Positions 7,032 to 23,693 of a stretch of DNA of 23,794 nt are shown here, piece by piece (position 1 is the first letter of the stretch; every line of letters begins with the position of its first letter). The notes under the pieces were generated by a model. It saw only the letters and a program-made list of their open reading frames with translations, did no database searches and was not told the origin of the DNA. The stretch is from Planctomycetia bacterium. Lineage in GTDB: Bacteria; Planctomycetota; Planctomycetia; JALXBF01; JBGPMX01. A program made the position numbers and the translations under genes. The stretch spans positions 1-23,794 of the forward strand of contig DAIOWH010000095.1 in assembly GCA_036758585.1 (NCBI GenBank), given 5' to 3'.

Positions 7032-7230
7032 TGCGGTTGGTTACGCGACTCTTGGGTTTACGGCGGCGCGCCTTGGATCCGACGCGGGCCTGGGCGGAAC
7101 ACTACCGAACCAACACGACTTGAGCCCGGAAATCACACCGTCGCCCACTCGCCGGTGGCCTTCCGTCGCACCAGCCCGAAACGCTGACTAATCGCGCAGC
7201 ACCATGTCCCCGGGCACCATCCTCGACACT

Positions 7231-7545
7231 TCTCCCTCCCCGTTGCGGCATTGGTATCTACACAAGTCCGAGACAGGGCCAGCCGCGAAGCGGCGCGAGT
7301 CGATAGCCAGGGGCGCAAGCCGGCTAACGCCCCTGGCTATCGACTCACGTCCCTTCGGGACTAAGTACTGTGCCACATTGAATAGGGTGTGAAATCGGCT
7401 TCGGTCGTTTAACCCGCAGCCGCAGGCGAGGCATGGCTGGCGCTTGTTGTGCCTCGCCTGCGGCTGCGGGTTAAACGAATTCGGACCCCTTTCAATGCGG
7501 AGCGGTACTAAGTTGTGTAGATACCAATGCCGTTGCGGGGAGAGT
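7231..7545. repeat. Inverted-repeat-bounded structured element (candidate MITE or structured ncRNA) in a convergent intergenic region
   Basis: Read directly: imperfect ~30-bp terminal inverted repeats. The left arm (7231-7265) is 'tctccctccccgttgcggcattggtatctacacaa'. The right arm (7513-7544) is 'ttgtgtagataccaatgccgttgcggggagag', with 20 bp perfect. Inside are a 15-bp perfect hairpin (7301-7342), two C(UUCG)G tetraloop hairpins (7349-7361, 7395-7406) and a 27-bp perfect hairpin (7407-7476). A degenerate third copy of the terminal repeat is at 7568-7587. Confidence 0.45.
7407..7476. other. Perfect 27-bp GC-rich hairpin (gtttaacccgcagccgcaggcgaggca / 16-nt loop / reverse complement)
   Basis: Read directly. 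No downstream T-tract, so it is not a canonical intrinsic terminator. It generates mirror ORFs on both strands encoding 'CLACGCGLN'. Confidence 0.7.
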
Positions 7546-7641
7546 CGGGGTGAGGGGTTGGCGGCATGTTGTAGGTACCAATACCCGGCGCTCAGCCCGC
7601 AGTTGGTTCTGCCCGACGAGTGTTGACAGATTCCTCGCGAC

Positions 7642-9006
7642 TCACGCCGCAATTCGTGGGCCTTCCGACTTGTCGACGCACGCGGCGACGGCCAGATCGC
7701 CGGTCACGTTCAGGACTGTGCGAGACATATCGAGGATGCGATCGACGCCCAGGATGATCGCGATGCCCTCGCCCGGCACGCCGACCGAACGCAGCAACAC
7801 GACAATGAGCGGAATCGAACCGCCCGGCACGCCGGCCGTGCCCACCCCCGCCAGCACCGACATGAGCACCACCTTGATTTGGTCGGCAAGCGACAGCTCC
7901 ACCCCGAACACCTGGGCCAGGAACAGCACGACGATGCCTTCGTACAGCGCGGTGCCGTTCTGGTTGCCGGTGGCGCCGACGGTCAGTACGAAGTTGCTGA
8001 TCTCGGGTCGCAGCCGCAGTCGTTCGCGGGCCACCTCGATGGCCGTGGGCAGCGTCGCGTTCGACGACGATGTGGCGAACGCGGTGAGCATGGCCTCGGA
8101 GACGTCGCGAAAGAACGCGGCTGGACTGCGGCCGCCGAACACCCGCACCGCGCACGAATACACCACGCACAAGTGCAGGGCCAGCCCGATCATCACCGTG
8201 AGCACGAACCAGAAGAGCGTCCGCAGGATATCGACGCCCAGCCGCGCGGTCATGGCGAACACCAATCCGGCCACGGCGATCGGGGCGAGTCGCATGGCGA
8301 AGTGGATGATCGCCATGCAGGCGTCGAATACGCCTTCGAGCACGCTGACCACGCCGGCCCGCCGGCCTTCCGGCACGACCGCCAGAGCGACGCCGAACAC
8401 GAGCGCGAAGAACATCACCGACAACATGCCGTTGCCCTTCGAGCTGCCGTCGAGCGCCCCGACCATCTCCTGCAGCGGGTTCTCGGGAATGATGTGCAGC
8501 AGCGTATCGCGCAGCGACTTGGCACTCTTGGCCTTGGTCACCATCTCGCCCGCGCCGGCGGCGTATTGGGCCTTGAGCTGTTCGCGCTGCGCCTCGGGCA
8601 AGCTGGCGCCAGGCTCGATCAGGTTCACCAGAGCGATCCCAATCGCCACGGCCGTAAGCGAGAAGCCGAGCGTGAACACGAGCGTGCGCACGCCGACGCG
8701 GCCGAGTCGCCTCACGTCGCCGATGCCGACCACGCCCAGCGCCAACGCCGAGAACACCATCGGCACGACGATCATGAAGATCAGTCGCAAGAAGACCTGC
8801 CCCACCGGTTCGGCCACGTTGCGCGCGACGGCGTCGAGCGTCTCGTTCATCTTGCCGTCAGGCCCGCGCGGAAACGACAGGTTGGCGATCACGCCGGCCA
8901 TGGCGCCGAGCACCAGTCCAATCCCGATCTGCCAGTGCAGTGCAAGTCGCCCGCTCGATTCTTGAGGTGCTTTCTCAGCCAAGCCTGCCCGTCCTTTGGC
9001 CAGCAT
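7642..9006 (-). CDS. Dicarboxylate/amino acid:cation symporter (DAACS family, GltP/DctA-like)
   Basis: 454 aa, multi-TM. The N-terminus LALHWQIGIGLVLGAMAGV and the motifs SSSNATLPT and GVPGGS are typical of sodium:dicarboxylate symporter family proteins. Confidence 0.85.
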   Translation of the reverse strand: MLAKGRAGLAEKAPQESSGRLALHWQIGIGLVLGAMAGVIANLSFPRGPDGKMNETLDAVARNVAEPVGQVFLRLIFMIVVPMVFSALALGVVGIGDVRRLGRVGVRTLVFTLGFSLTAVAIGIALVNLIEPGASLPEAQREQLKAQYAAGAGEMVTKAKSAKSLRDTLLHIIPENPLQEMVGALDGSSKGNGMLSVMFFALVFGVALAVVPEGRRAGVVSVLEGVFDACMAIIHFAMRLAPIAVAGLVFAMTARLGVDILRTLFWFVLTVMIGLALHLCVVYSCAVRVFGGRSPAAFFRDVSEAMLTAFATSSSNATLPTAIEVARERLRLRPEISNFVLTVGATGNQNGTALYEGIVVLFLAQVFGVELSLADQIKVVLMSVLAGVGTAGVPGGSIPLIVVLLRSVGVPGEGIAIILGVDRILDMSRTVLNVTGDLAVAACVDKSEGPRIAA

Positions 9007-9021
9007 CCATGTTGTCGCGCG

Positions 9022-9774
9022 TCAAGCGCGGTCGGCCTCGCCGGTCCGCAACTCGCCGCGGCGGCGCGCCAGAAACTGTACGAATTCGGCGTGCTCGGGC
9101 GATTGTAGGCCCAGATTCAACGCGGTGAGCATTTGTGCGACATCGCCACGCAGCAACGCGATCGTGTCGAGCCAAAGGCCGGGGAATGAGACAGACCGAA
9201 CAATGCCCCGGTCATCGGCGGGCAGCGGCTGATACGTCCCGGCGACGCGCCGCAGCCAGCGGACCTCGCGCTCGGCGAGCAGCACAATGATGTATTCCAA
9301 AACTCCAGCCGAACGATATAGGTCTAGTTTCTGGTTCAGATCGTACGAACTGCTGGACAGCGCGATCTCCGCCAACAACTCCGGTGCGCCGTGGCCATAC
9401 TTGCCCTCCACGCGCGATTGACCGCCGCATTCCGGCAAGATTCGCAAGTGATCGTCCGGCTGCGGCGCATCCTGCAGCATGAGCCATGTGGTGTTGGTTC
9501 CGCCCTTGCACCCTGGTGTTTGTGCGACATAGACGGTTAGCCAGCCAGCGATGGGAAGGTCGGTCTCGCCGTGCTCGATACTCACCGGTGACGGCATGTA
9601 AACGATTCCTCCAATCAACTCGGCCTTGCGCACGTGCGGCATCGACTCGTAGCGGCGCAGAAACTCCCGCTGCGTCAGGCAGTCGCCGGCCACGAGCGGA
9701 GGAACGTCGGGCGATGACGATGCGGGAACGTGCGGCGAGCGCGAGGGCAACAGGATTTCGGCGCCGACGCTCAT
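9022..9774 (-). CDS. Uma2-family (DUF820, PF05685) putative restriction-endonuclease-like protein
   Basis: LTQREFLRRYESMPHVRKAELIGGIVYMPSPVSIEHGE is characteristic of Uma2. It lies 15 nt upstream of the DAACS gene on the same strand. The N-terminal ~30 aa may be an over-extension. Confidence 0.7.
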   Translation of the reverse strand: MSVGAEILLPSRSPHVPASSSPDVPPLVAGDCLTQREFLRRYESMPHVRKAELIGGIVYMPSPVSIEHGETDLPIAGWLTVYVAQTPGCKGGTNTTWLMLQDAPQPDDHLRILPECGGQSRVEGKYGHGAPELLAEIALSSSSYDLNQKLDLYRSAGVLEYIIVLLAEREVRWLRRVAGTYQPLPADDRGIVRSVSFPGLWLDTIALLRGDVAQMLTALNLGLQSPEHAEFVQFLARRRGELRTGEADRA

Positions 9775-13795: not shown

Positions 13796-13828
13796 GAACC
13801 CGGTCCCGGACAGCTCCGGGCTCGGCGA

Positions 13829-13960
13829 GTAGGCTGGGTGCGGCACCCAGCCTACGGAAGACCCATTCAGAAGTAGGCTGGGTGCGGCACCCAGCCTACG
13901 GAAGACCCATTCAGAAGTAGGCTGGGTGCGGCACCCAGCCTACGGAAGACCCATTCAGAA
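13829..13960. repeat. Three tandem 44-bp units, each a 27-nt perfect palindrome 'gtaggctgggtgcggcacccagcctac' plus 'ggaagacccattcagaa' (REP/BIME-like)
   Basis: Read directly: units start at 13829, 13873 and 13917 and are identical. They are preceded by 'cggcgagtaggctgg', which is also found at 10511. Confidence 0.8.
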
Positions 13961-14133
13961 GTGCAAGGACAAGATGAATGGCAAATCGTTGTGGAGTGAC
14001 TGCTAAGAAGTCATCGGCGACGAGCAAAGTAATGGCGCAGATTCCCCTGCGCACGGCTGTTTGTTAGGATTACGCCCGATCGGAAAGTCTCGCGGAAGAC
14101 CCACGAAGCCAATACGCAAGGAGTTACGATTCG

Positions 14134-14579: not shown

Positions 14580-14604
14580 TCGCTCGGAGTGTCGGCGTTG
14601 ATTT

Positions 14605-14640
14605 CGAGGCGGCCTGCCGTCACAATGCCGCCTCGTTTGC
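14605..14640 (+). terminator. Putative intrinsic terminator (9-bp stem cgaggcggc/gccgcctcg, 13-nt loop, then TTTGC)
   Basis: Read directly, downstream of the CBS gene. The U-tract is short, so this is weak. Confidence 0.3.
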
Positions 14641-14678
14641 TCGGTGACTGTGCCTTGGTCGATACCGTCGGAGTACGA

Positions 14679-15497
14679 ATGAACGTCAAACGACTCACGC
14701 TCGAAGAGATCGACGACCTGAAGCGACGCTGGACTGAGAAGTATGTCGAGGTGGACGCGAGCCGGCCGGAGCTGAAACGGTTCGCCGGTCGGGCCGGCCG
14801 TGTGATCACGGTGAACATGAGCGGCAAGGCGTTGGTGCAGTTCGACGATGCGGAAGGTTGCGGCTGGGGGCGCTACGACATCGGCCTGCCGTTCCTGACG
14901 CAGGTTGCCGCGCCCGCGCCGGCGGCGAAGAAGCACGAGGCGGCCGAGAAGCCAAAGGCGGAGGCTGCGGCGTCGAGCGGCGCCCCGACCGCGAAGAAGT
15001 CGCCCATCGAACTCATGAAGGAGAAGGCCGCAGCCAAGAAGGCCGCCGAAGCGGGCGCGCCCGCCGAGACGCTGCCGGCCGGGCCGGTCAAGAAATCACC
15101 CATCGAGTTGATGCGCGAAAAGGCCGCGGCAAAGGCGGCGAGTGAAGGCGCGCCGGCCGCCGAACCGGCGACGACGCCGACGGCCAAGAAGTCGCCGATC
15201 GAGTTGATGCGAGAGAAAGCTGCGGCGAAGGTGGCAGGTAGCGGCACGCCCGCCGCCGCTGAACCGGCGACCGCGCCGACCGCCAAGAAATCTCCGATCG
15301 AACTGATGCGCGAGAAAGCTGCGGCTAAGAAGGCCGCCGAGGCCGGTTCCACCGAACCCGCAGGGACCTCAGCCAGCCCACCCGATGCCTCCTCGTCGCC
15401 ACCGGCTGCGACACAAAAGGAAGGTGGACTCTCCAAGATCGAGATGATCCGACAAGCGGCAGCCAAGAAAAAGGCCGAGGAGCAGGGCAAGGCCTGA
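14679..15497 (+). CDS. Hypothetical protein with ~100-aa N-terminal domain and 4-5 tandem ~32-aa Ala/Lys/Pro-rich repeats containing 'KKSPIELMREKAAAK'
   Basis: Met at 14679 (MNVKRLTLEEIDDLKRRW) with GGAG 8 nt upstream. The repeat is visible at both protein and DNA level (period ~96-99 nt from ~14990 to 15340). Confidence 0.65.
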   Translation: MNVKRLTLEEIDDLKRRWTEKYVEVDASRPELKRFAGRAGRVITVNMSGKALVQFDDAEGCGWGRYDIGLPFLTQVAAPAPAAKKHEAAEKPKAEAAASSGAPTAKKSPIELMKEKAAAKKAAEAGAPAETLPAGPVKKSPIELMREKAAAKAASEGAPAAEPATTPTAKKSPIELMREKAAAKVAGSGTPAAAEPATAPTAKKSPIELMREKAAAKKAAEAGSTEPAGTSASPPDASSSPPAATQKEGGLSKIEMIRQAAAKKKAEEQGKA

Positions 15498-18108: not shown

Positions 18109-19011
18109 TTACGGCTGATCGCGCATGATGGTCAGGTCGACGTCCTGGCCGCGGTCGATGATCAGCTTCGCGCGAAAGCGGGGCACGATCTCGGCGATGG
18201 TTTCGAGGTACATGCGCGCGGCGGCGACCGCCGGCGCCTTGCGATACTCGTAGAGCAAGGCGACGAACCGTTCGGCCTCGCTGCGCGCCAGGTCGACGGC
18301 CCGCGCGTGCTCGGCCCGCGCGCGGTCGGTCCGCTGTTGCGACTCGCTGCGGGCCTGGGCCAGCTTCTCGTTCGCGTAGGTCTTGGCCTCCAGCACCAGT
18401 CGCTCGCGATCGCTGCGGGCCGACGCGGCGCGAGTGAATGCGTCGACGACCTGCGGCGGCGGCGAGAGTTCCGTAAGGCTGACCGAGCGGACCTCGACGC
18501 CCATCTCATACCGCCTCAGATTCTGCTCCAGCGTGTCCTTGATCAAAATCGCCAGTGCATCCTTGCCGCTGGTCAGCACCGAGTCGATGGACTTGCCCGC
18601 CAGCGTCGTCGACGCCGCCGACTCGGCCGCGCGCGTAATGACCTCGGCCGGATCGGCCAGCGAGAAGAGGTATCGCGTCGGGTCGGTGATGGTGTACTGC
18701 ACCGTTGCTTCGACGATCACCAGGTTCTGGTCGCCCGTCAGGAACTGGGCCAGCGACGGCGCGAGCGACGGACCGATCGCGCGATCGGTCGCGCGGTCGC
18801 CGATCTTCACGGTCTTGGTCTCGCTCGGCTTCACCAGATCGACGCGATCGAGGCCCCAGGGCAGCCCGATGTGCAGGCCCGGTTCGGCATGCTCGTCGAT
18901 GACCGCGCCGAAGCGGCGCACGACCGCTCGCTCGTCCGTGCCGACTGTGTAGATGCCGGTCGCAAGGTAGGCGATCGCACCGGCGATCACTGCCGCGACG
19001 AACCATTTCAT
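18109..19011 (-). CDS. hflC: SPFH/band-7 protein, HflC-like (short N-terminus, one TM, periplasmic SPFH domain, C-terminal coiled coil)
   Basis: MKWFVAAVIAGAIAYLATGIY TM helix, then RAVVRRFGAV...GLHIGLPWGLDRV SPFH start. GGAGG RBS. The ATG overlaps the hflK stop (ATGA at 19008-19011). Confidence 0.85.
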   Translation of the reverse strand: MKWFVAAVIAGAIAYLATGIYTVGTDERAVVRRFGAVIDEHAEPGLHIGLPWGLDRVDLVKPSETKTVKIGDRATDRAIGPSLAPSLAQFLTGDQNLVIVEATVQYTITDPTRYLFSLADPAEVITRAAESAASTTLAGKSIDSVLTSGKDALAILIKDTLEQNLRRYEMGVEVRSVSLTELSPPPQVVDAFTRAASARSDRERLVLEAKTYANEKLAQARSESQQRTDRARAEHARAVDLARSEAERFVALLYEYRKAPAVAAARMYLETIAEIVPRFRAKLIIDRGQDVDLTIMRDQP

Positions 19012-20339
19012 GGCTTGCCCTCCGTGTTGCCGCCGCCGGGCGGGCCGCTGCTTGCCGGGCCGGCGCCGTTGGCGGCCGGCGCGGACTGTTTGGCCGGCGG
19101 CTTGGTCGAGGTCGCGGCGGGATGGCCGTCGGTCAGGAGTCGCAGCAGGTTCGATTCGGACGAGAGCACGATGGTGGTCTTTTCGTTCAGGATCGCGCGA
19201 TAGGTTTCGAGCGTCTTCAGGAACTGGTAGAACTCGGGGTCCTGACTGTGCGCGGCGTTGGCGATGCGCATGGCCTGGGCCTCGCCCTCGCCGCGGATGC
19301 GTTCGGCGTCGGCGGCCGCCTTGGCCAGTATCTCGGCGCGCTCGGTGTCGGCAAGGCTGCGTATCTTGTCGGCCTCACTCTTGCCCTCGTCGCGATACTT
19401 CTTGGCGACGCCCTGGCGCTCGGCCCGAATCATCTCGAAGATCGCCGGCTTCACCGCTTCGGGATGATTGAACCGCTTGATCCGCACGTCCACGATCTCG
19501 ATGCCGAACTGATCGAGTGCATCGCGGCGAATCTGCTCGGTCAGCTCGCGCATCAGCCGATCAAGCCCGATGTCCTTGGGGTCAAGGCTGACGAACTCAG
19601 CGAGACTCATTTCTCCGACCCGGGCCTTGAGCATCGAGTCGATGCGTTCGCGCAGCCGGTCTTGAGCGGCCGGGATGCTGCCGACCGAGAGCACGAAACG
19701 CAACACGCCCTTTTTGAAATCGGCGTTGGCCTTCGCGGTCGGGATGCGCCAGCAGACGTACCAATCGACCGAGAGCGGCGGGCCGCCGAGACTGGCTCGC
19801 GACCGTGCGTCGCCCGCCGCCTGGCCGATCTGCGGCCGATCGCGCGTGAGCATGGTGCTGCCGGGCGGGCTGTACATTTGCAGCCGCCGATCCAGCCGCC
19901 GCACGCTCTGATACGGCAGCTTGAAACCCAACCCCGGCTCGACGCACAACCGGACCGGCCTGCCGAATTCCAGGACGTAGACATACTCGGTCTGGTCCAC
20001 AAAGAAACACGCCGACCAAGCGACGAGGCCGACGAGACCCGCCGTCACGCATGTCACAACCGCCCGCTTGATCGAGCCGCCTCGGCCGGGGCCGTGCACG
20101 TGGGAGTGGTCGTGGTGATGGTGGTCGTGACCGCCGTCGTGCGAATGGCTATGTGCATGGTCGTGATCGTGATCGTGGTCATGATCGTGATGGCCGTGAC
20201 CATGGTCGTGTGCGTGGCTGTGCGGGTGGCTGTGTCCGTGCGAATGGCCATGATTGTGGTCATGGTTGTGGCTGTGCCCATGAGATTCGCTCGGGGCGTG
20301 CGAGTGATCGTGCTCGTGCTTGTCGGATTCGTTGTGCAT
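19008..20339 (-). CDS. hflK: SPFH/band-7 protein, HflK-like, with ~80-aa His/Asp/Ser-rich N-terminal cytoplasmic tail
   Basis: Residues 1-82 are HxHx repeats (HEHDHSHAPSESHGHSHNHDHNHGHSHGHSHPHSHAHDHGHGHHDHDHDHDHDHAHSHSHDGGHDHHHHDHSHVH). A TM helix follows (AVVTCVTAGLVGLVAWSACFF), then the SPFH domain (YVYVLEFGRPV...EPGLGFKLPY) and a Lys/Ala/Glu-rich coiled coil. Confidence 0.85.
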   Translation of the reverse strand: MHNESDKHEHDHSHAPSESHGHSHNHDHNHGHSHGHSHPHSHAHDHGHGHHDHDHDHDHDHAHSHSHDGGHDHHHHDHSHVHGPGRGGSIKRAVVTCVTAGLVGLVAWSACFFVDQTEYVYVLEFGRPVRLCVEPGLGFKLPYQSVRRLDRRLQMYSPPGSTMLTRDRPQIGQAAGDARSRASLGGPPLSVDWYVCWRIPTAKANADFKKGVLRFVLSVGSIPAAQDRLRERIDSMLKARVGEMSLAEFVSLDPKDIGLDRLMRELTEQIRRDALDQFGIEIVDVRIKRFNHPEAVKPAIFEMIRAERQGVAKKYRDEGKSEADKIRSLADTERAEILAKAAADAERIRGEGEAQAMRIANAAHSQDPEFYQFLKTLETYRAILNEKTTIVLSSESNLLRLLTDGHPAATSTKPPAKQSAPAANGAGPASSGPPGGGNTEGKP

Positions 20340-20363: not shown

Positions 20364-23300
20364 CTACTGATCCAGTTCCATCGGCGGCGTCGCGACCGGT
20401 GCGGCGGCGGCGGGGAGCCGGATGTTGAACTTATCGGGGTCGGCCAGGAAGAGCTGCCGGCGACCGGCGGCGGCCGGATCGAGCACCAGCTTGTCCTTGT
20501 CGGCGAGTGTGGCCTCGATCGCGTTCAGGTAGAGCCGCAGGCTGGAGATCGCCGGCCAATCGGCGTAGGCGGCGCGTCGCATCGAAAACGCCGCCGCATC
20601 GCCCTCGGCCCGGTACGTCTGATCGGCCGCCCGCGCCTTGGCCGCGGCCAGTTCGCTCGACGCCTCGCCGCTCAGGTCCGGTTTCAGTTCGGCCCAGACC
20701 GCGTCCGTCACCTGGCCATCGTGCCGCGCGAGTCGTTCGGCGGCGGCGGCGCCGGCGACCGTGATGATTTGCTGCTGAAAGTAAGCGTCGGCCTCCTTCT
20801 GCATGCGCTCACGGTCCTTGAACGCGCTCGAAACGTCGTGGAAGGCGTCGACGACTTGCAGCGGCGGGTGCACATCCTGCAGCGCGACGGCACGGACGTC
20901 GACGCCGAGTCGGTAGTCATCGGTGCGTTGTTGCAGTAGCGACCGGGCCTCGCGCTCGATCTCGGCGCGCTCAGCGGTCAGGATATTCCAGAACGCTCGC
21001 CGCGCGGCCAGTTCGCGCAGCACGCCCTCGGCCAGCGACTTGACGACCGAGTCGGGATCGCGCACCTCGAAGAGATATCGCACGATGTCGGCGTCGCCGC
21101 GCCGCACGCTGAACTGCACCACTGCGTTCAGCTCGAGCAGGTTCTCGTCGCCCGTGAAGAGCAGCGACTCGTCCTCGACCCGTTCGATCAGTCCCTCGCG
21201 ATGCGTGCTGGTCCACTCGATCGGCCGCGCCCCTTGGAACGACTCGTCGGTCCGCGTGCGAAACCCCAGTTCGGCCACGCGCACGCGGTCGGGCGCGAAT
21301 CGCTCGACCGTCTCCCACGGCCGCGGCAGCCGGAAGTGCAGGCCCGGCTCGAGCGCGGCGATGAACCCGCCGCAACGTTTCACGACGCCGACCTCGTCGA
21401 GGTCCACTACCGTGACGCCCATCGCCCAGTAGCCGATCACGGCCGCAACCGCCGCCCACGTCGCGGCCGCTCGCGGTTTGCGCACGGCCCAACGGACGGG
21501 CTGTAGCAGCGGATCGAGCGCGGCGCCTGCGCGGCGGGCCAGTTCGCACGCCTGCGATTCGAACCGACCGGCCGCCGATCGTTCCCAGCGCTCGAACCAG
21601 AGCAGGCGCATCGCATTGACCAGCACGAGAAACGAACCGATCTGGTGGTAGATCGCCGCGCCGACCGGGCCCAGCCGTTCCGCCGCAGCGAGCACGATCG
21701 CGACGCCGTTGACGACGAACGCGAACAGCACGATGTTCTGCCGAATCACCCGCACGGTCGCGCGGCTGAGCCGCACCAGGCCGGGCAGCGGGGCGAGCGG
21801 GTCGCCCATCAGGACCAAATCGCCCGCCTCGGCCGCGATGTCGCTGCCCACGCCGCCGAGCGCCAGCCCGACGTCGGCCGATGCCAGCGCGGGAGCGTCG
21901 TTCACGCCGTCGCCGATCATGGCGATGGGAACGCGAGAGGATAGAGGATAGAGGATGGAGGATGGAGGATGGAGGATGGAGGATTGCGCAGAAGCGGTCG
22001 GAGTGTCGTTGCGCGATCCTCGATCCTCTATCCTCGATCCTCTACCATCAACCCTCCTCTTGATCCACTCGGCCTTCTCTTGCGGCAGCAACTCGGCGTG
22101 GAACTCGTCGATGCCGACGGCGCAAGCGACGGCCTCGGCGGCCGGCCGGCGGTCGCCCGTGAGTAGGACGATCTCATCGATGCCGAGGTGTCGCAGCTCG
22201 CCAAGCACGTCGACGGCACCGGCCCGGATCGTGTCGCGCGCGCCGACGAGGCCGATGACGCGGCCGTCGAGCGCGACGGCGAGCGGCGTCTGGCCGGCCG
22301 CGTCGAGTCGCGCGAAGGCCGCGGTAACCTCGTCATCCAGCGTGACGCCCTGCTGCTCAAGCAACCGTCGGTTGCCGACGCAAATCAGAGATTGCTGATT
22401 GCTGATCGCCGATTGCTGATCGCTGACGGTTGACGTCTGACCGCTCGTCCGCGCGACAACTCCTGCGCCGGGGTGGGCCGTGAACTCATCGACGGAGGGC
22501 AGCACGAGTGCGCGTTTGGCGGCCTCGGCGACGATCAAACGACCCAACAGATGTTCGCTACGCGACTCGGCAGCCGCGGCGATCGCGAGCACCTCGTCGG
22601 CCGAGCGCTCGGCGAGCGGGATGACGTCGCCGAGTTGCAGCTTGCCTTCGGTCAATGTGCCGGTCTTGTCAAAGGCGATCGCGCGGACGTGGGCAAGGCG
22701 CTCGAGTGCGGCACCGCCCTTGATCAGGACGCCGCGCCGGGCCAGCCACGCCAACGCGGCCATGATTGCGGCGGGGGTCGCCAGAATCAGCGCGCACGGG
22801 CACGCGACGACCAGCACCGCGAGCGTCGGCATCCAATCGGCGCTCGTCAGGTCCGACCAAGGAGTACCCCAGGTCGTGTAGACCATCGTGCCGGCGGCAC
22901 TCGCGAGCACGACCGGCAGGAACACGCGGGCGAGCCGGTCGGCGATGCGTTCGATCGGCGCCTTGTTCTCTTGCGCCTCGGCGACCAGCTCGATCACCTG
23001 AGCGAGCGTTGTGTCCTCGCCGACCTTGTCGGCCCGCACTTCGAGCGCGCCGAACTGGTTCAGCGTGCCGGCGAAGACCATATCGCCCGCGGCCTTGTCC
23101 ACCGGCACACTCTCGCCAGTAAGCGTGCTCTGGTCCACGGCCGACTGGCCGCCGAGCACCGAGCCGTCGATCGGGACTCGTTCGCCGGGCCGCACCACCA
23201 CGCGCTCGCCGACGTTCAGTTCCGTGATGGCCACGTCGACCTCGTGGCCGTCGCGCAGCACGTGGGCCACGCGCGGTTGCAGTTCCAGGATGCGGCTCAT

Positions 23301-23693
23301 CTCGCGATGCGTGCGGGCGAACGTGATCGCTTCGAGCGATTCGCCGACCATCGCGATGAAGACGACTTCGGCGCCGACCCAGTACTCGCCCAGGATCAGC
23401 GACGCGAGCAGCGCGATGGCCAGCGCGAGGTCCGCTCCCACGTTGCCATCGAACAGCGCAAGCAGCGCCCCGTAGACGATCCGCGCCCCGCCGATCACGG
23501 CCGCGGCGAACGCGAGGTCGAGCCAGCCGAACGGCCGATCTGGCCCGGTGTAACCGAACGCCGCGAGAACGAGGTGTGCGCCGATCAGCACGCCGAGCAG
23601 GATCGTCAGCGCGTACAGTCCCCGAAACGACGGCAGTCGCAGTGCGTCTTCCGGGTCTATCTTGTGCTGCATGTGCATCGGACGGGTACCCAC
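20364..23693 (-). CDS. Fusion protein: CPC-type P1B heavy-metal-translocating P-type ATPase (aa 1-~700, no N-terminal HMA domain) + linker with extra TM helix + C-terminal HflK/C-like SPFH domain (last ~347 aa)
   Basis: One uninterrupted 1109-codon frame. ATPase motifs: TGESVPV (actuator), VVACPCALILATP (TM6 CPC), FDKTGTLT (phosphorylation site), MIGDGVNDAPALA (hinge). The junction is near nt 21596 (…NAMRLLW|FERWERS…). A TM helix AAATWAAVAAVIGYWAMGV follows, then the SPFH domain (GVVKRCGGFIAALEPGLHFRLP…QVVDAFHDVSSAFKDRER…). The stop lies 24 nt upstream of hflK. Confidence 0.8.
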   Translation of the reverse strand: MGTRPMHMQHKIDPEDALRLPSFRGLYALTILLGVLIGAHLVLAAFGYTGPDRPFGWLDLAFAAAVIGGARIVYGALLALFDGNVGADLALAIALLASLILGEYWVGAEVVFIAMVGESLEAITFARTHREMSRILELQPRVAHVLRDGHEVDVAITELNVGERVVVRPGERVPIDGSVLGGQSAVDQSTLTGESVPVDKAAGDMVFAGTLNQFGALEVRADKVGEDTTLAQVIELVAEAQENKAPIERIADRLARVFLPVVLASAAGTMVYTTWGTPWSDLTSADWMPTLAVLVVACPCALILATPAAIMAALAWLARRGVLIKGGAALERLAHVRAIAFDKTGTLTEGKLQLGDVIPLAERSADEVLAIAAAAESRSEHLLGRLIVAEAAKRALVLPSVDEFTAHPGAGVVARTSGQTSTVSDQQSAISNQQSLICVGNRRLLEQQGVTLDDEVTAAFARLDAAGQTPLAVALDGRVIGLVGARDTIRAGAVDVLGELRHLGIDEIVLLTGDRRPAAEAVACAVGIDEFHAELLPQEKAEWIKRRVDGRGSRIEDRGSRNDTPTASAQSSILHPPSSILYPLSSRVPIAMIGDGVNDAPALASADVGLALGGVGSDIAAEAGDLVLMGDPLAPLPGLVRLSRATVRVIRQNIVLFAFVVNGVAIVLAAAERLGPVGAAIYHQIGSFLVLVNAMRLLWFERWERSAAGRFESQACELARRAGAALDPLLQPVRWAVRKPRAAATWAAVAAVIGYWAMGVTVVDLDEVGVVKRCGGFIAALEPGLHFRLPRPWETVERFAPDRVRVAELGFRTRTDESFQGARPIEWTSTHREGLIERVEDESLLFTGDENLLELNAVVQFSVRRGDADIVRYLFEVRDPDSVVKSLAEGVLRELAARRAFWNILTAERAEIEREARSLLQQRTDDYRLGVDVRAVALQDVHPPLQVVDAFHDVSSAFKDRERMQKEADAYFQQQIITVAGAAAAERLARHDGQVTDAVWAELKPDLSGEASSELAAAKARAADQTYRAEGDAAAFSMRRAAYADWPAISSLRLYLNAIEATLADKDKLVLDPAAAGRRQLFLADPDKFNIRLPAAAAPVATPPMELDQ
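21937..22056. repeat. 120-nt palindromic heptamer-repeat element inside the ATPase CDS (7 x 'gaggatN', 29-nt spacer, 6 x inverted 'NatcctC')
   Basis: Read directly. It is in-frame: it encodes GRGSRIEDRGSRNDTPTASAQSSILHPPSSILYPLSS between the LPQEKAEWIKRRVDG and VPIAMIGDGVNDAP blocks, which are contiguous in ordinary P1B ATPases. Confidence 0.75.
22390..22424. repeat. Heptanucleotide tandem repeat (gattgct gattgct gatcgcc gattgct gatcgct) inside the ATPase CDS
   Basis: Read directly. It encodes the low-complexity VSDQQSAISNQQS insert in the nucleotide-binding domain (…GAGVVARTSGQTST[VSDQQSAISNQQS]LICVGNRRLL…). Confidence 0.55.

Follow-up and report, generated by a model that had tools for sequence, protein, structure and literature searches.

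Contig DAIOWH010000095.1 of the Planctomycetia bacterium assembly GCA_036758585.1 (positions 1 to 23,794; this whole stretch of 23,794 nt is hereafter called the window) carries at positions 21937-22056 a heptamer-repeat palindrome that is translated in frame within a gene encoding a P-type ATPase fused to an SPFH/Band-7 domain. The element can be placed among the convergent heptanucleotide repeat pairs, a class already known, to which it adds a new repeat unit, a new host phylum and in-frame translation. On balance, we regard the element as probably a convergent inverted pair of heptanucleotide microsatellites that is kept by slippage and homogenization and carried as a tolerated passenger in a permissive protein loop, where only in-frame and stop-free versions survive.

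Structure of the heptamer palindrome

The palindrome is made of two heptamer arrays separated by a unique centre (49 + 29 + 42 = 120 nt). On the + strand, the left arm (21937-21985) reads GAGGATA, GAGGATA, four copies of GAGGATG, and GAGGATT, that is (GAGGATN)x7, in which six positions of the unit are fixed and the 7th is variable. Analysis with Tandem Repeats Finder (TRF) assigned to this arm a period of 7, with 6.9 copies and 97% matches. The host gene lies on the minus strand, and on the mRNA this stretch is the C-rich 3′ arm, (NATCCTC)x7, encoding SSILHPPSSILYPLSS. The right arm (22015-22056) reads GATCCTC, GATCCTC, TATCCTC, GATCCTC, TACCATC and AACCCTC on the + strand (TRF period 7, 4.1 copies, 90% matches) and is the G-rich 5′ arm on the mRNA, with units GAGGGTT, GATGGTA, GAGGATC, GAGGATA, GAGGATC and GAGGATC encoding VDGRGSRIEDRGS. 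A first-pass annotation of this DNA had described seven GAGGATN heptamers, a 29-nt spacer and six inverted heptamers. The first two parts of that layout stand, whereas good preservation is limited to four of the six inverted units (NATCCTC), the outer two (TACCATC and AACCCTC) having decayed. The centre (21986-22014; + strand sequence GCGCAGAAGCGGTCGGAGTGTCGTTGCGC) contains a GCGC...GCGC mini-stem and encodes RNDTPTASAQ.

Complementarity between the arms reached 81% over 47-nt arms and 93% over a 28-nt core, and the 7th bases of the units showed no covariation between the two arms. The tract is short and imperfect, with a longest perfect run of four units (GAGGATG). Matches to the pattern GAGGATNGAGGAT numbered nine in the window, every one of them inside the element, in comparison with 0.11 expected from shuffled sequences. 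The predicted fold in mRNA sense was very stable (−73.4 kcal/mol vs −48.8 ± 4.3 for shuffles; z = −5.75), and none of 200 shuffles was as stable. The G+C content of the element is 57-59%, vs ~70% for the rest of the gene.

A search of Rfam with the element revealed no family at the gathering threshold; the sub-threshold matches were generic hairpin (miRNA precursor) models, which are explained by the mere presence of a long hairpin. Inspection of the flanks GGGAACGCGA and CTCTTGATCC revealed neither a target-site duplication nor a terminal signature, and the same flanking sequence is shared by orthologs that carry other arrays. The GTAG head typical of repetitive extragenic palindromic (REP) sequences was not found in the element, nor was a GGG run found in the unit GAGGATN. 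Without a run of three G the unit has no quadruplex potential and therefore does not belong to the G4-forming subtype. Both strands encode SSIL peptides, as had been remarked previously, which is true but trivial (+ strand open reading frames (ORFs) 21881-22063 and 21969-22166, SSILY; 21955-22398, SSILD).

Position of the insert in the host protein

The host gene (20364..23693, minus strand) encodes a 1109-amino acid (aa) protein that combines a P1B-type (CPC-motif) P-type ATPase with a C-terminal SPFH/Band-7 domain. Pfam analysis of this protein identified PF00122, PF00702 and PF01145, and the motifs CPC, DKTGT and GDGVNDAP are present. More than 100 full-length homologs of the fusion were listed; the named ones belong to Planctomycetota, the closest named ones to Pirellulales. 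The palindrome is located mid-gene, at ~50% of the gene length, and measures exactly 120 nt, so that the reading frame of the 1109-aa ORF is kept, as the first-pass annotation had stated. The peptide encoded by the element region is RRVDGRGSRIEDRGSRNDTPTASAQSSILHPPSSILYPLSSRVPIAMIGDGVNDA.

Alignment with the solved structure of A. fulgidus CopA (3J08) left 37 residues unaligned between the contiguous CopA positions 514 and 515; the first-pass annotation had proposed an added loop of ~40 aa. The motifs LP-x-K and GDGVNDAP, previously taken to be normally adjacent, are ~19 residues apart in CopA (from LPxxK to GDGxNDxP, comprising a helix, a turn and a strand). Within this planctomycete metal ATPase, the insert occupies a P-domain loop at the protein surface, preceded by the helix that follows LPxxK and followed by the strand that leads into GDGxNDxP. 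A second heptamer array was detected by TRF at 22390-22426 (minus strand; coding-strand sequence (AGCAATC)x5.3, translated as SDQQSAISNQQS). This array falls in an N-domain loop ahead of the conserved ICVGNRRLL. It lacks an inverted partner, and its peptide TSGQTSTVSDQQSAISNQQS coincides exactly with a 20-aa gap in CopA.

The AlphaFold2 model of the host protein had a mean predicted local distance difference test (pLDDT) score of 75, with a confident cytoplasmic ATPase core. The sole low-confidence coils in this core (pLDDT <50) were residues 419-432 and 552-585, the latter bordered by helix 537-548 and strand 590-594. Taken together, the CopA gaps and the low-pLDDT coils indicate that both arrays are insertions in surface loops. 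The ATPase is almost certainly functional despite the insert, which is then a tolerated disordered loop.

Turnover of heptamer arrays in orthologous genes

Alignment of 27 homologous proteins and inspection of the DNA of eight orthologous loci revealed that the distant homologs P0061, P0084, P0116 and P0117 have a short loop and no insert. The enlarged loop at the position of the palindrome (the hinge loop) is common to the closer, Pirellulales-type homologs. In the closest clade, inserts of varying length and sequence are found at the same two loops, encoded by heptamer arrays of different families, and the orthologs with arrays at these loops span 68-95% identity. At the hinge loop, the GAGGATN hairpin of the window recurs in L001 and L003 (95% and 71% aa identity, respectively); an AGCAATC array occupies the site in L002 (87%), L005 and L006, GGTCAGA and CCACTCA arrays in L004, and a CACTCAC array in L008. 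At the N-domain loop, AGCAATC is found in the window, L001 and L002, a GAGAGCG/CGCTCTC hairpin in L003, and mixed arrays in L004, L005 and L008. The comparison of orthologs that the first-pass annotation had proposed thus revealed that, in the closest clade, the loops differ in length and are encoded by different heptamer arrays, and not by non-repetitive DNA. These data show that the loop is permissive: it does not align with CopA, disorder is predicted for it, and its length and content vary among orthologs.

The hinge arrays of L002, L005, L006 and L008 are single and unable to form a hairpin at that site. Furthermore, one and the same heptamer can occupy both loops of a single gene, ~370 nt apart, as is the case for AGCAATC in L002 and for CACTCAC in L004 and L008. 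The resulting loop peptides are wholly different between close orthologs (SSILHPPSS, SISNQQSAIS, TTHHSPLTTH). In the N-domain loop of L008 (~1490-1551), a perfect GC-rich palindrome, CCCGGCGCGCCGGG, lies between two direct CACTCAC arrays, as though a small palindrome had been inserted into a heptamer array.

A homologous centre was found only at the orthologous site. Between the window and L003, 21 of the 29 bases of the centre are identical (72%) and eight differ, while the proteins share 71% identity. The arms are far better conserved, with only two of 56 arm bases off-unit in L003, as expected if the units are continually homogenized. Alignment of L001 with the window using MAFFT showed that L001 has lost 12 nt from the centre and another 6 nt from the outer end of one arm, both of them in-frame deletions. 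An initial reading of this difference as the loss of one 7-nt unit plus a 1-nt compensation was dropped, since the two deletions explain it more simply. In L006, the "empty" N-domain loop retains a CGCCCTC remnant of the arm present in its sister, a feature of the sequence that points to deletion rather than insertion. In a neighbor-joining tree, P0002 grouped with the window protein and P0001, and P0003 grouped with P0006. In comparison with the array types, this topology yields a patchy distribution of both, which implies that arrays have repeatedly been replaced, lost or transferred.

Among the alleles of the heptamer-bearing clade that were examined, eight were complete, and all of these were intact and kept the reading frame. 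The only split homolog seen, the distant L269, is divided into four ORFs by frame breaks that lie outside the arrays. A second protein search, made with the hinge region and aimed at frameshifted alleles, returned only contig-end fragments (L209, L210 and P0204) and the distant L269. It has to be noted that these short-read contigs from other samples start inside or just after the hinge array (L209 positions 1-57; L210 positions 1-20; gene start at 91 in the P0204 contig), and that L209, which is contig Ga0114941_101770 of JGI sample 3300009594 and stems from the same strain, has a product 100% identical to the window protein. Such contig starts could reflect either a hairpin coinciding with contig ends or length heterogeneity in the population.

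Heptamer arrays in other genes and genomes

Period-7 repeats are the predominant class in the window and the orthologous loci (131 kb in total), where TRF reported 47 rows of period 7 and at most 19 of any other period, and period 7 ranked first in most of the relatives sampled. On the contrary, 80 control ATPase loci showed no excess of period 7 (17 rows vs 40 for period 9). These controls were generic P-type ATPases from metagenome contigs (33-45% identity, matching MIGDGVND), with no close relatives among them. Arrays in the relatives also occupy short spacers between genes, and start 4-29 nt past the ATPase stop codon.

A search for further copies, also proposed in the first-pass annotation, was carried out by scanning 185,579 species genomes (one genome per species) with the pattern GAGGATNGAGGATNGAGGAT (GAGGATN x3). 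GAGGATN arrays and hairpins were found in many phyla, often in frame within housekeeping genes, with only the 7-nt unit in common. The scan recovered at least 120 loci, in Planctomycetota, Acidobacteriota, Verrucomicrobiota, Gallionella, Bacteroidota and others. Among the matches listed, an inverted partner was present within 150 nt in 28 of 120 loci, and all 28 pairs had the polarity GAGGAT...ATCCTC. The centres of 25 other GAGGATN hairpins were unrelated, including two hairpins in one genome (L042 and L078). Inspection of these 25 centres led us to reject the existence of a conserved mobile core. In the IMG/VR database, 58 viral contigs (L211-L268) contained at least three GAGGATN units, and close convergent pairs of the same polarity were seen in L246 and L257.

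Many arrays are buried far within long ORFs. In other phyla, in-frame arrays with Pfam domains on both sides were found in EPSP synthase, UbiD, MurF, MutL, DnaE and a polyketide synthase ketoreductase (PKS KR) domain. The heptamer-encoded peptides recur in these unrelated enzymes, and the readings found in genes are the stop-free ones. The ATCCTC strand is free of stops in all frames (ATC CTC NAT CCT CNA TCC TCN), and the GAGGAT strand encodes a stop only if, in the relevant phase, the 7th position holds a T (giving TGA) or an A (giving TAG). These rules account for the recurrent peptides SSILxPxSS, EDRGSRI and EDGGWRM. In the sense arm of the window element, the 7th position holds a C at every place where TGA or TAG would result from a T or A, and the single A stands in the harmless ATN phase; stop avoidance thus explains the C, A, C, C pattern of this arm.

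UvrA-like ORFs with arrays, recognized by motif inspection only, were also observed in L011 (minus strand) and L037. The ORF in L011 contains several separate heptamer-encoded inserts (EDCRLKS x5, APSTKHQ-type and SSILNPQ). In the one in L037, a different insert is present twice (...AADVS...SQSRLTSAAT...), suggestive of a further dispersed palindromic element that preserves the frame.

Polarity of convergent arrays

The orientation of arrays was determined for every heptamer in 1.41 Mb of fetched DNA (L001-L208). Among 76 inverted heptamer pairs, with medians of 4.4 units per arm and 24.5 nt for the centre, the G-rich arm was 5′ in 71 and reversed in only one. The bias was maintained when the heptamers were unrelated to GAGGAT (27 vs 1; p = 2e-7), and adjacent arrays that failed a shared-6-mer complementarity test were likewise arranged G-to-C rather than C-to-G (26 vs 3). 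Examples of pairs with a G-rich 5′ arm are seen at L003 2372-2472, L012 2341-2414 and L053 4583-4675. Adjacent G-G pairs also exceeded C-C pairs (15 vs 2); these numbers should be strand-symmetric, and the excess, which is unexplained or an artefact, was not used.

Origin and maintenance of the element

The explanation that we favor is that the arrays would gain, lose and homogenize 7-nt units through replication slippage, and that homogenization would preserve near-perfect arms, with the centre left to diverge at the same pace as the gene. Out-of-frame or stop-containing versions are missing from the complete alleles, and selection may be what removes them. Selection for frame and against stops would produce a length divisible by three, the stop-free ATCCTC reading, and a C or G as 7th base in the GAGGAT-sense arm. 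The 37-45 translated residues would then constitute a passenger loop; on this view the element is not a programmed switch, and it is not a transposon built on a conserved core either.

Several observations weigh against this explanation. In the 23.8-kb window, lag-7 periodicity is confined to the ATPase-SPFH gene, and the arrays of L002 are likewise found only there. Slippage alone does not explain the recurrence of one heptamer at many unrelated sites and in many phyla, nor its presence at both loops of a single gene in L002, L004 and L008, and it does not account for the G-to-C polarity. In addition, the homologous-centre hairpin is found in non-sister lineages (window and P0001 vs P0003), with a different array at the site in the closer relative L002. 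The polarity, the recurrence of the unit across phyla, its presence at two loops and the patchy hairpin hint at copying or insertion.

The rival explanation that survives best invokes a mobile or copy-paste palindrome similar to Rickettsia palindromic elements (RPEs) or miniature inverted-repeat transposable elements (MITEs), with whole hairpins or arrays inserted into permissive sites by some enzyme, perhaps through addition of G-rich heptamers to both 3′ ends of a break and their rejoining, from which the observed polarity would follow. The strict polarity, which extends to non-complementary pairs, is in favor of such a process, as are the hundreds of unrelated sites, in different phyla and in viral contigs, that share one heptamer, its occurrence at two loops of one gene, and the shared 29-nt centre of non-sister lineages. 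We nevertheless consider this origin unlikely. The 25 unrelated hairpin centres, even within one genome, argue against a conserved core, the flanks lack the duplication or terminal signature of an insertion, and no associated enzyme was identified. Furthermore, the remnant in the empty loop of L006 speaks for deletion rather than insertion, and the 72% identity of the centre is in line with the divergence of the gene, so that vertical descent with repeated loss is equally possible.

Rather unlikely in our view is that heptamer hairpins are scars or products of a dedicated cross-phylum process and not of plain slippage. As an example, both 3′ ends of a DNA break or gap might be extended reiteratively with G-rich 7-nt units and then rejoined. 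If this were true, a short filler centre would end up between convergent G-rich arrays written at the ends, possibly in frame within essential genes. The resulting "written" palindromic insertions would be an undescribed class, present in Planctomycetota, Acidobacteriota, Verrucomicrobiota, Gallionella, Bacteroidota and some viral contigs.

A function at the level of nucleic acid, in which an mRNA stem-loop or a DNA cruciform would serve ribosome pausing, RNase III processing, transcript stabilization or attenuation, appears improbable. The very stable fold (−73 kcal/mol), the better conservation of the arms than of the centre, and the clustering of related arrays just past stop codons in relatives and in Xanthomonas, where hairpins resembling terminators or stabilizers act, would fit such a role. 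However, a hairpin is impossible at the site in L002, the closest non-identical lineage, and in L005, L006 and L008; moreover, no Rfam family matched at the gathering threshold, and no covariation links the variable 7th bases of one arm to those of the other.

The first-pass annotation had also put forward a slipped-strand phase-variation switch, in which the gain or loss of one 7-nt unit would shift the frame and turn the ATPase-SPFH fusion off or on. We found this proposal unsupported and hold it to be very doubtful. A unit that is not a multiple of three, located within an ORF and including four perfect GAGGATG copies, could in principle slip in this manner; the array length does differ between the window and the 95%-identical L001, and the contigs that begin at the array (L209, L210 and P0204) could reflect population heterogeneity. 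On the other hand, the eight complete alleles are intact, the differences in L001 (12 + 6 nt) are in frame, the frameshifts of L269 are not at arrays, and contig breaks are also expected from a 120-nt repeat hairpin. The short imperfect tracts lie halfway along a housekeeping-type transporter gene, and not at the 5′ end of a gene for a surface structure or for restriction-modification, and similar arrays are present in MurF, DnaE, MutL and EPSP synthase, where on/off switching is implausible. Finally, an adaptive protein feature, that is, a loop serving the ATPase-SPFH fusion as a linker, interaction or regulatory segment, would agree with the enlarged loop common to the closer homologs but is highly improbable, as the peptide is dictated by whichever heptamer is present, differs wholly between close orthologs, is predicted to be disordered and recurs in unrelated enzymes.

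Comparison with known repeat systems

Heptanucleotide repeats are the most abundant class of long simple sequence repeats in many bacteria, according to Mrazek 2007 as cited in PMC4692102 and PMC4679880. Each Xanthomonas genome contains ~185 GGGAATC arrays, with a preference for four units, and 70-75 array pairs "with convergent orientation" (Rehm et al. 2015, PMC4692102). These Xanthomonas arrays are 89-93% intergenic, with a strong bias towards positions next to the upstream stop codon, and 7-11% intragenic; their sites are conserved between species, with length and sequence varying. In Nostoc, 32% of the GGGGA(C/T)T arrays are intragenic (PMC4692102). The arrays described here resemble these GGGNATC-type repeats of Xanthomonas and Nostoc in their tandem 7-nt units with a variable position, their size of ~4 units and, in the loci of most relatives, their dispersed copies. 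They further share with those of Xanthomonas the frequent convergent pairs of a G-rich array followed by its complement, the location just past stop codons (here in the relatives) with a minority inside genes, and the occupation of the same site in relatives with variation in length and sequence. The unit GAGGATY differs from GGGAATC of Xanthomonas at two of seven positions, and from GGGGATT of Nostoc at one. Unlike both systems, the unit lacks GGG, the host belongs to Planctomycetota, and the copy is intragenic, exactly in frame and translated within an essential-type enzyme. In a further difference from Xanthomonas, the arrays of the window, like those of L002, are seen only in the ATPase-SPFH gene; an over-representation of period 7 was observed in the loci of most relatives (47 period-7 rows in 131 kb). 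Our literature search found no report on heptamer repeats in Planctomycetes or on GAGGAT arrays.

Mazel in 1990 reportedly described short tandemly repeated repetitive (STRR) heptamers in cyanobacteria. TAACTGA heptamers are found in Beggiatoaceae, cyanobacteria and Bacteroidetes, mostly as direct arrays upstream of start codons, with one indirect repeat reported (MacGregor 2015, PMC4679880). Like the STRR and TAACTGA heptamers, the present arrays are lineage-characteristic, patchy across phyla and without a known mechanism, and, as for TAACTGA, only the stop-free orientation is tolerated inside ORFs. Unlike in the TAACTGA system, the defining feature here is an inverted pair within a conserved domain.

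RPEs are said to have been described by Ogata and co-workers in 2000. RPE families are specific to Rickettsia and have a conserved full-length consensus of ~100-150 nt. The present element is similar to them in placing hairpin-forming DNA in frame within a conserved ORF and adding a surface peptide to an intact protein, but its copies have only the 7-nt unit in common, with no full-length consensus and with unrelated centres. Membership in the RPE families is not supported, given the lack of a conserved full-length consensus across the 25 hairpins. With Correia elements, MITEs, REPs and REP doublets (REPINs) the element shares the nature of a short, non-autonomous, hairpin-forming repeat. Unlike Correia elements and MITEs, it has microsatellite arrays as arms, without fixed terminal inverted repeats, duplication of a TA or other target, or near-identical dispersed copies. 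Correia/MITE membership is not supported in view of the first two of these features, nor is REP/REPIN membership in view of the lack of a GTAG head. The resemblance to RPEs and Correia-like elements noted in the first-pass annotation therefore holds for behavior (an in-frame palindrome, tolerated as a loop in an essential enzyme) and fails for membership, for want of a consensus and of a target duplication.

The hmw genes of Haemophilus influenzae have 7-bp repeats upstream, and in such loci long perfect tracts occupy the promoters or 5′ regions of genes for surface structures. The GAGGATN arrays are like these contingency loci in having a 7-nt unit that is able to slip and is not a multiple of three, here inside an ORF. 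They are unlike them in having at most four perfect units, in lying mid-gene in a transporter, and in being intact in all complete alleles of the clade.

Neighboring genes and other repeats in the window

Directly downstream of the ATPase-SPFH fusion are two SPFH/Band-7 genes (19008-20339 and 18109-19011, both on the minus strand). The N-terminal ~85 aa of the product of 19008-20339 are extremely rich in His and Asp (HDHDHD..., HSHGHSH...), a composition that suggests metal binding. In the relatives the ATPase-SPFH gene is likewise followed by two Band_7 genes, and then by a small ORF and an added NfeD gene. In L002, which is 87% identical, the genes directly upstream of the ATPase (7067-9499) are those for an Eco57I-type methyltransferase/endonuclease and for XamI-type restriction.

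Two other tandem repeats were observed in the window. The first (13828-13962) consists of 3.1 copies of a 44-nt unit with 100% matches, and each unit contains a 12-bp perfect GTAG-headed hairpin, GTAGGCTGGGTG-CGG-CACCCAGCCTAC. This repeat is REP-like and different in kind from the heptamer hairpin. The second (15089-15329) has 2.5 copies of a 99-nt unit with 80% matches, and the overlapping ORF 14589-15497 (+ strand) gave no Pfam match.

Significance

For the ATPase gene itself the insert is of little consequence. In practical terms, the presence of heptamer hairpins has effects on assemblies and annotations: short-read contigs repeatedly start at or just past them, pseudo-motifs such as SSILxPxSS, EDRGSRI, SDQQSAI and TTHHSPL inflate protein alignments, and the hairpins could be mistaken for mobile elements or switches. 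More broadly, heptanucleotide pairs, earlier known mainly as intergenic oddities of Xanthomonas and cyanobacteria, are also present in Planctomycetota and in several other phyla, where the arrays are regularly translated in frame within conserved enzymes, including P-type ATPase, MutL, DnaE, MurF, EPSP synthase, UbiD and, as judged by motif inspection only, UvrA. The near-absolute rule that the G-rich arm is 5′, which slippage does not predict, constrains any model of their origin.

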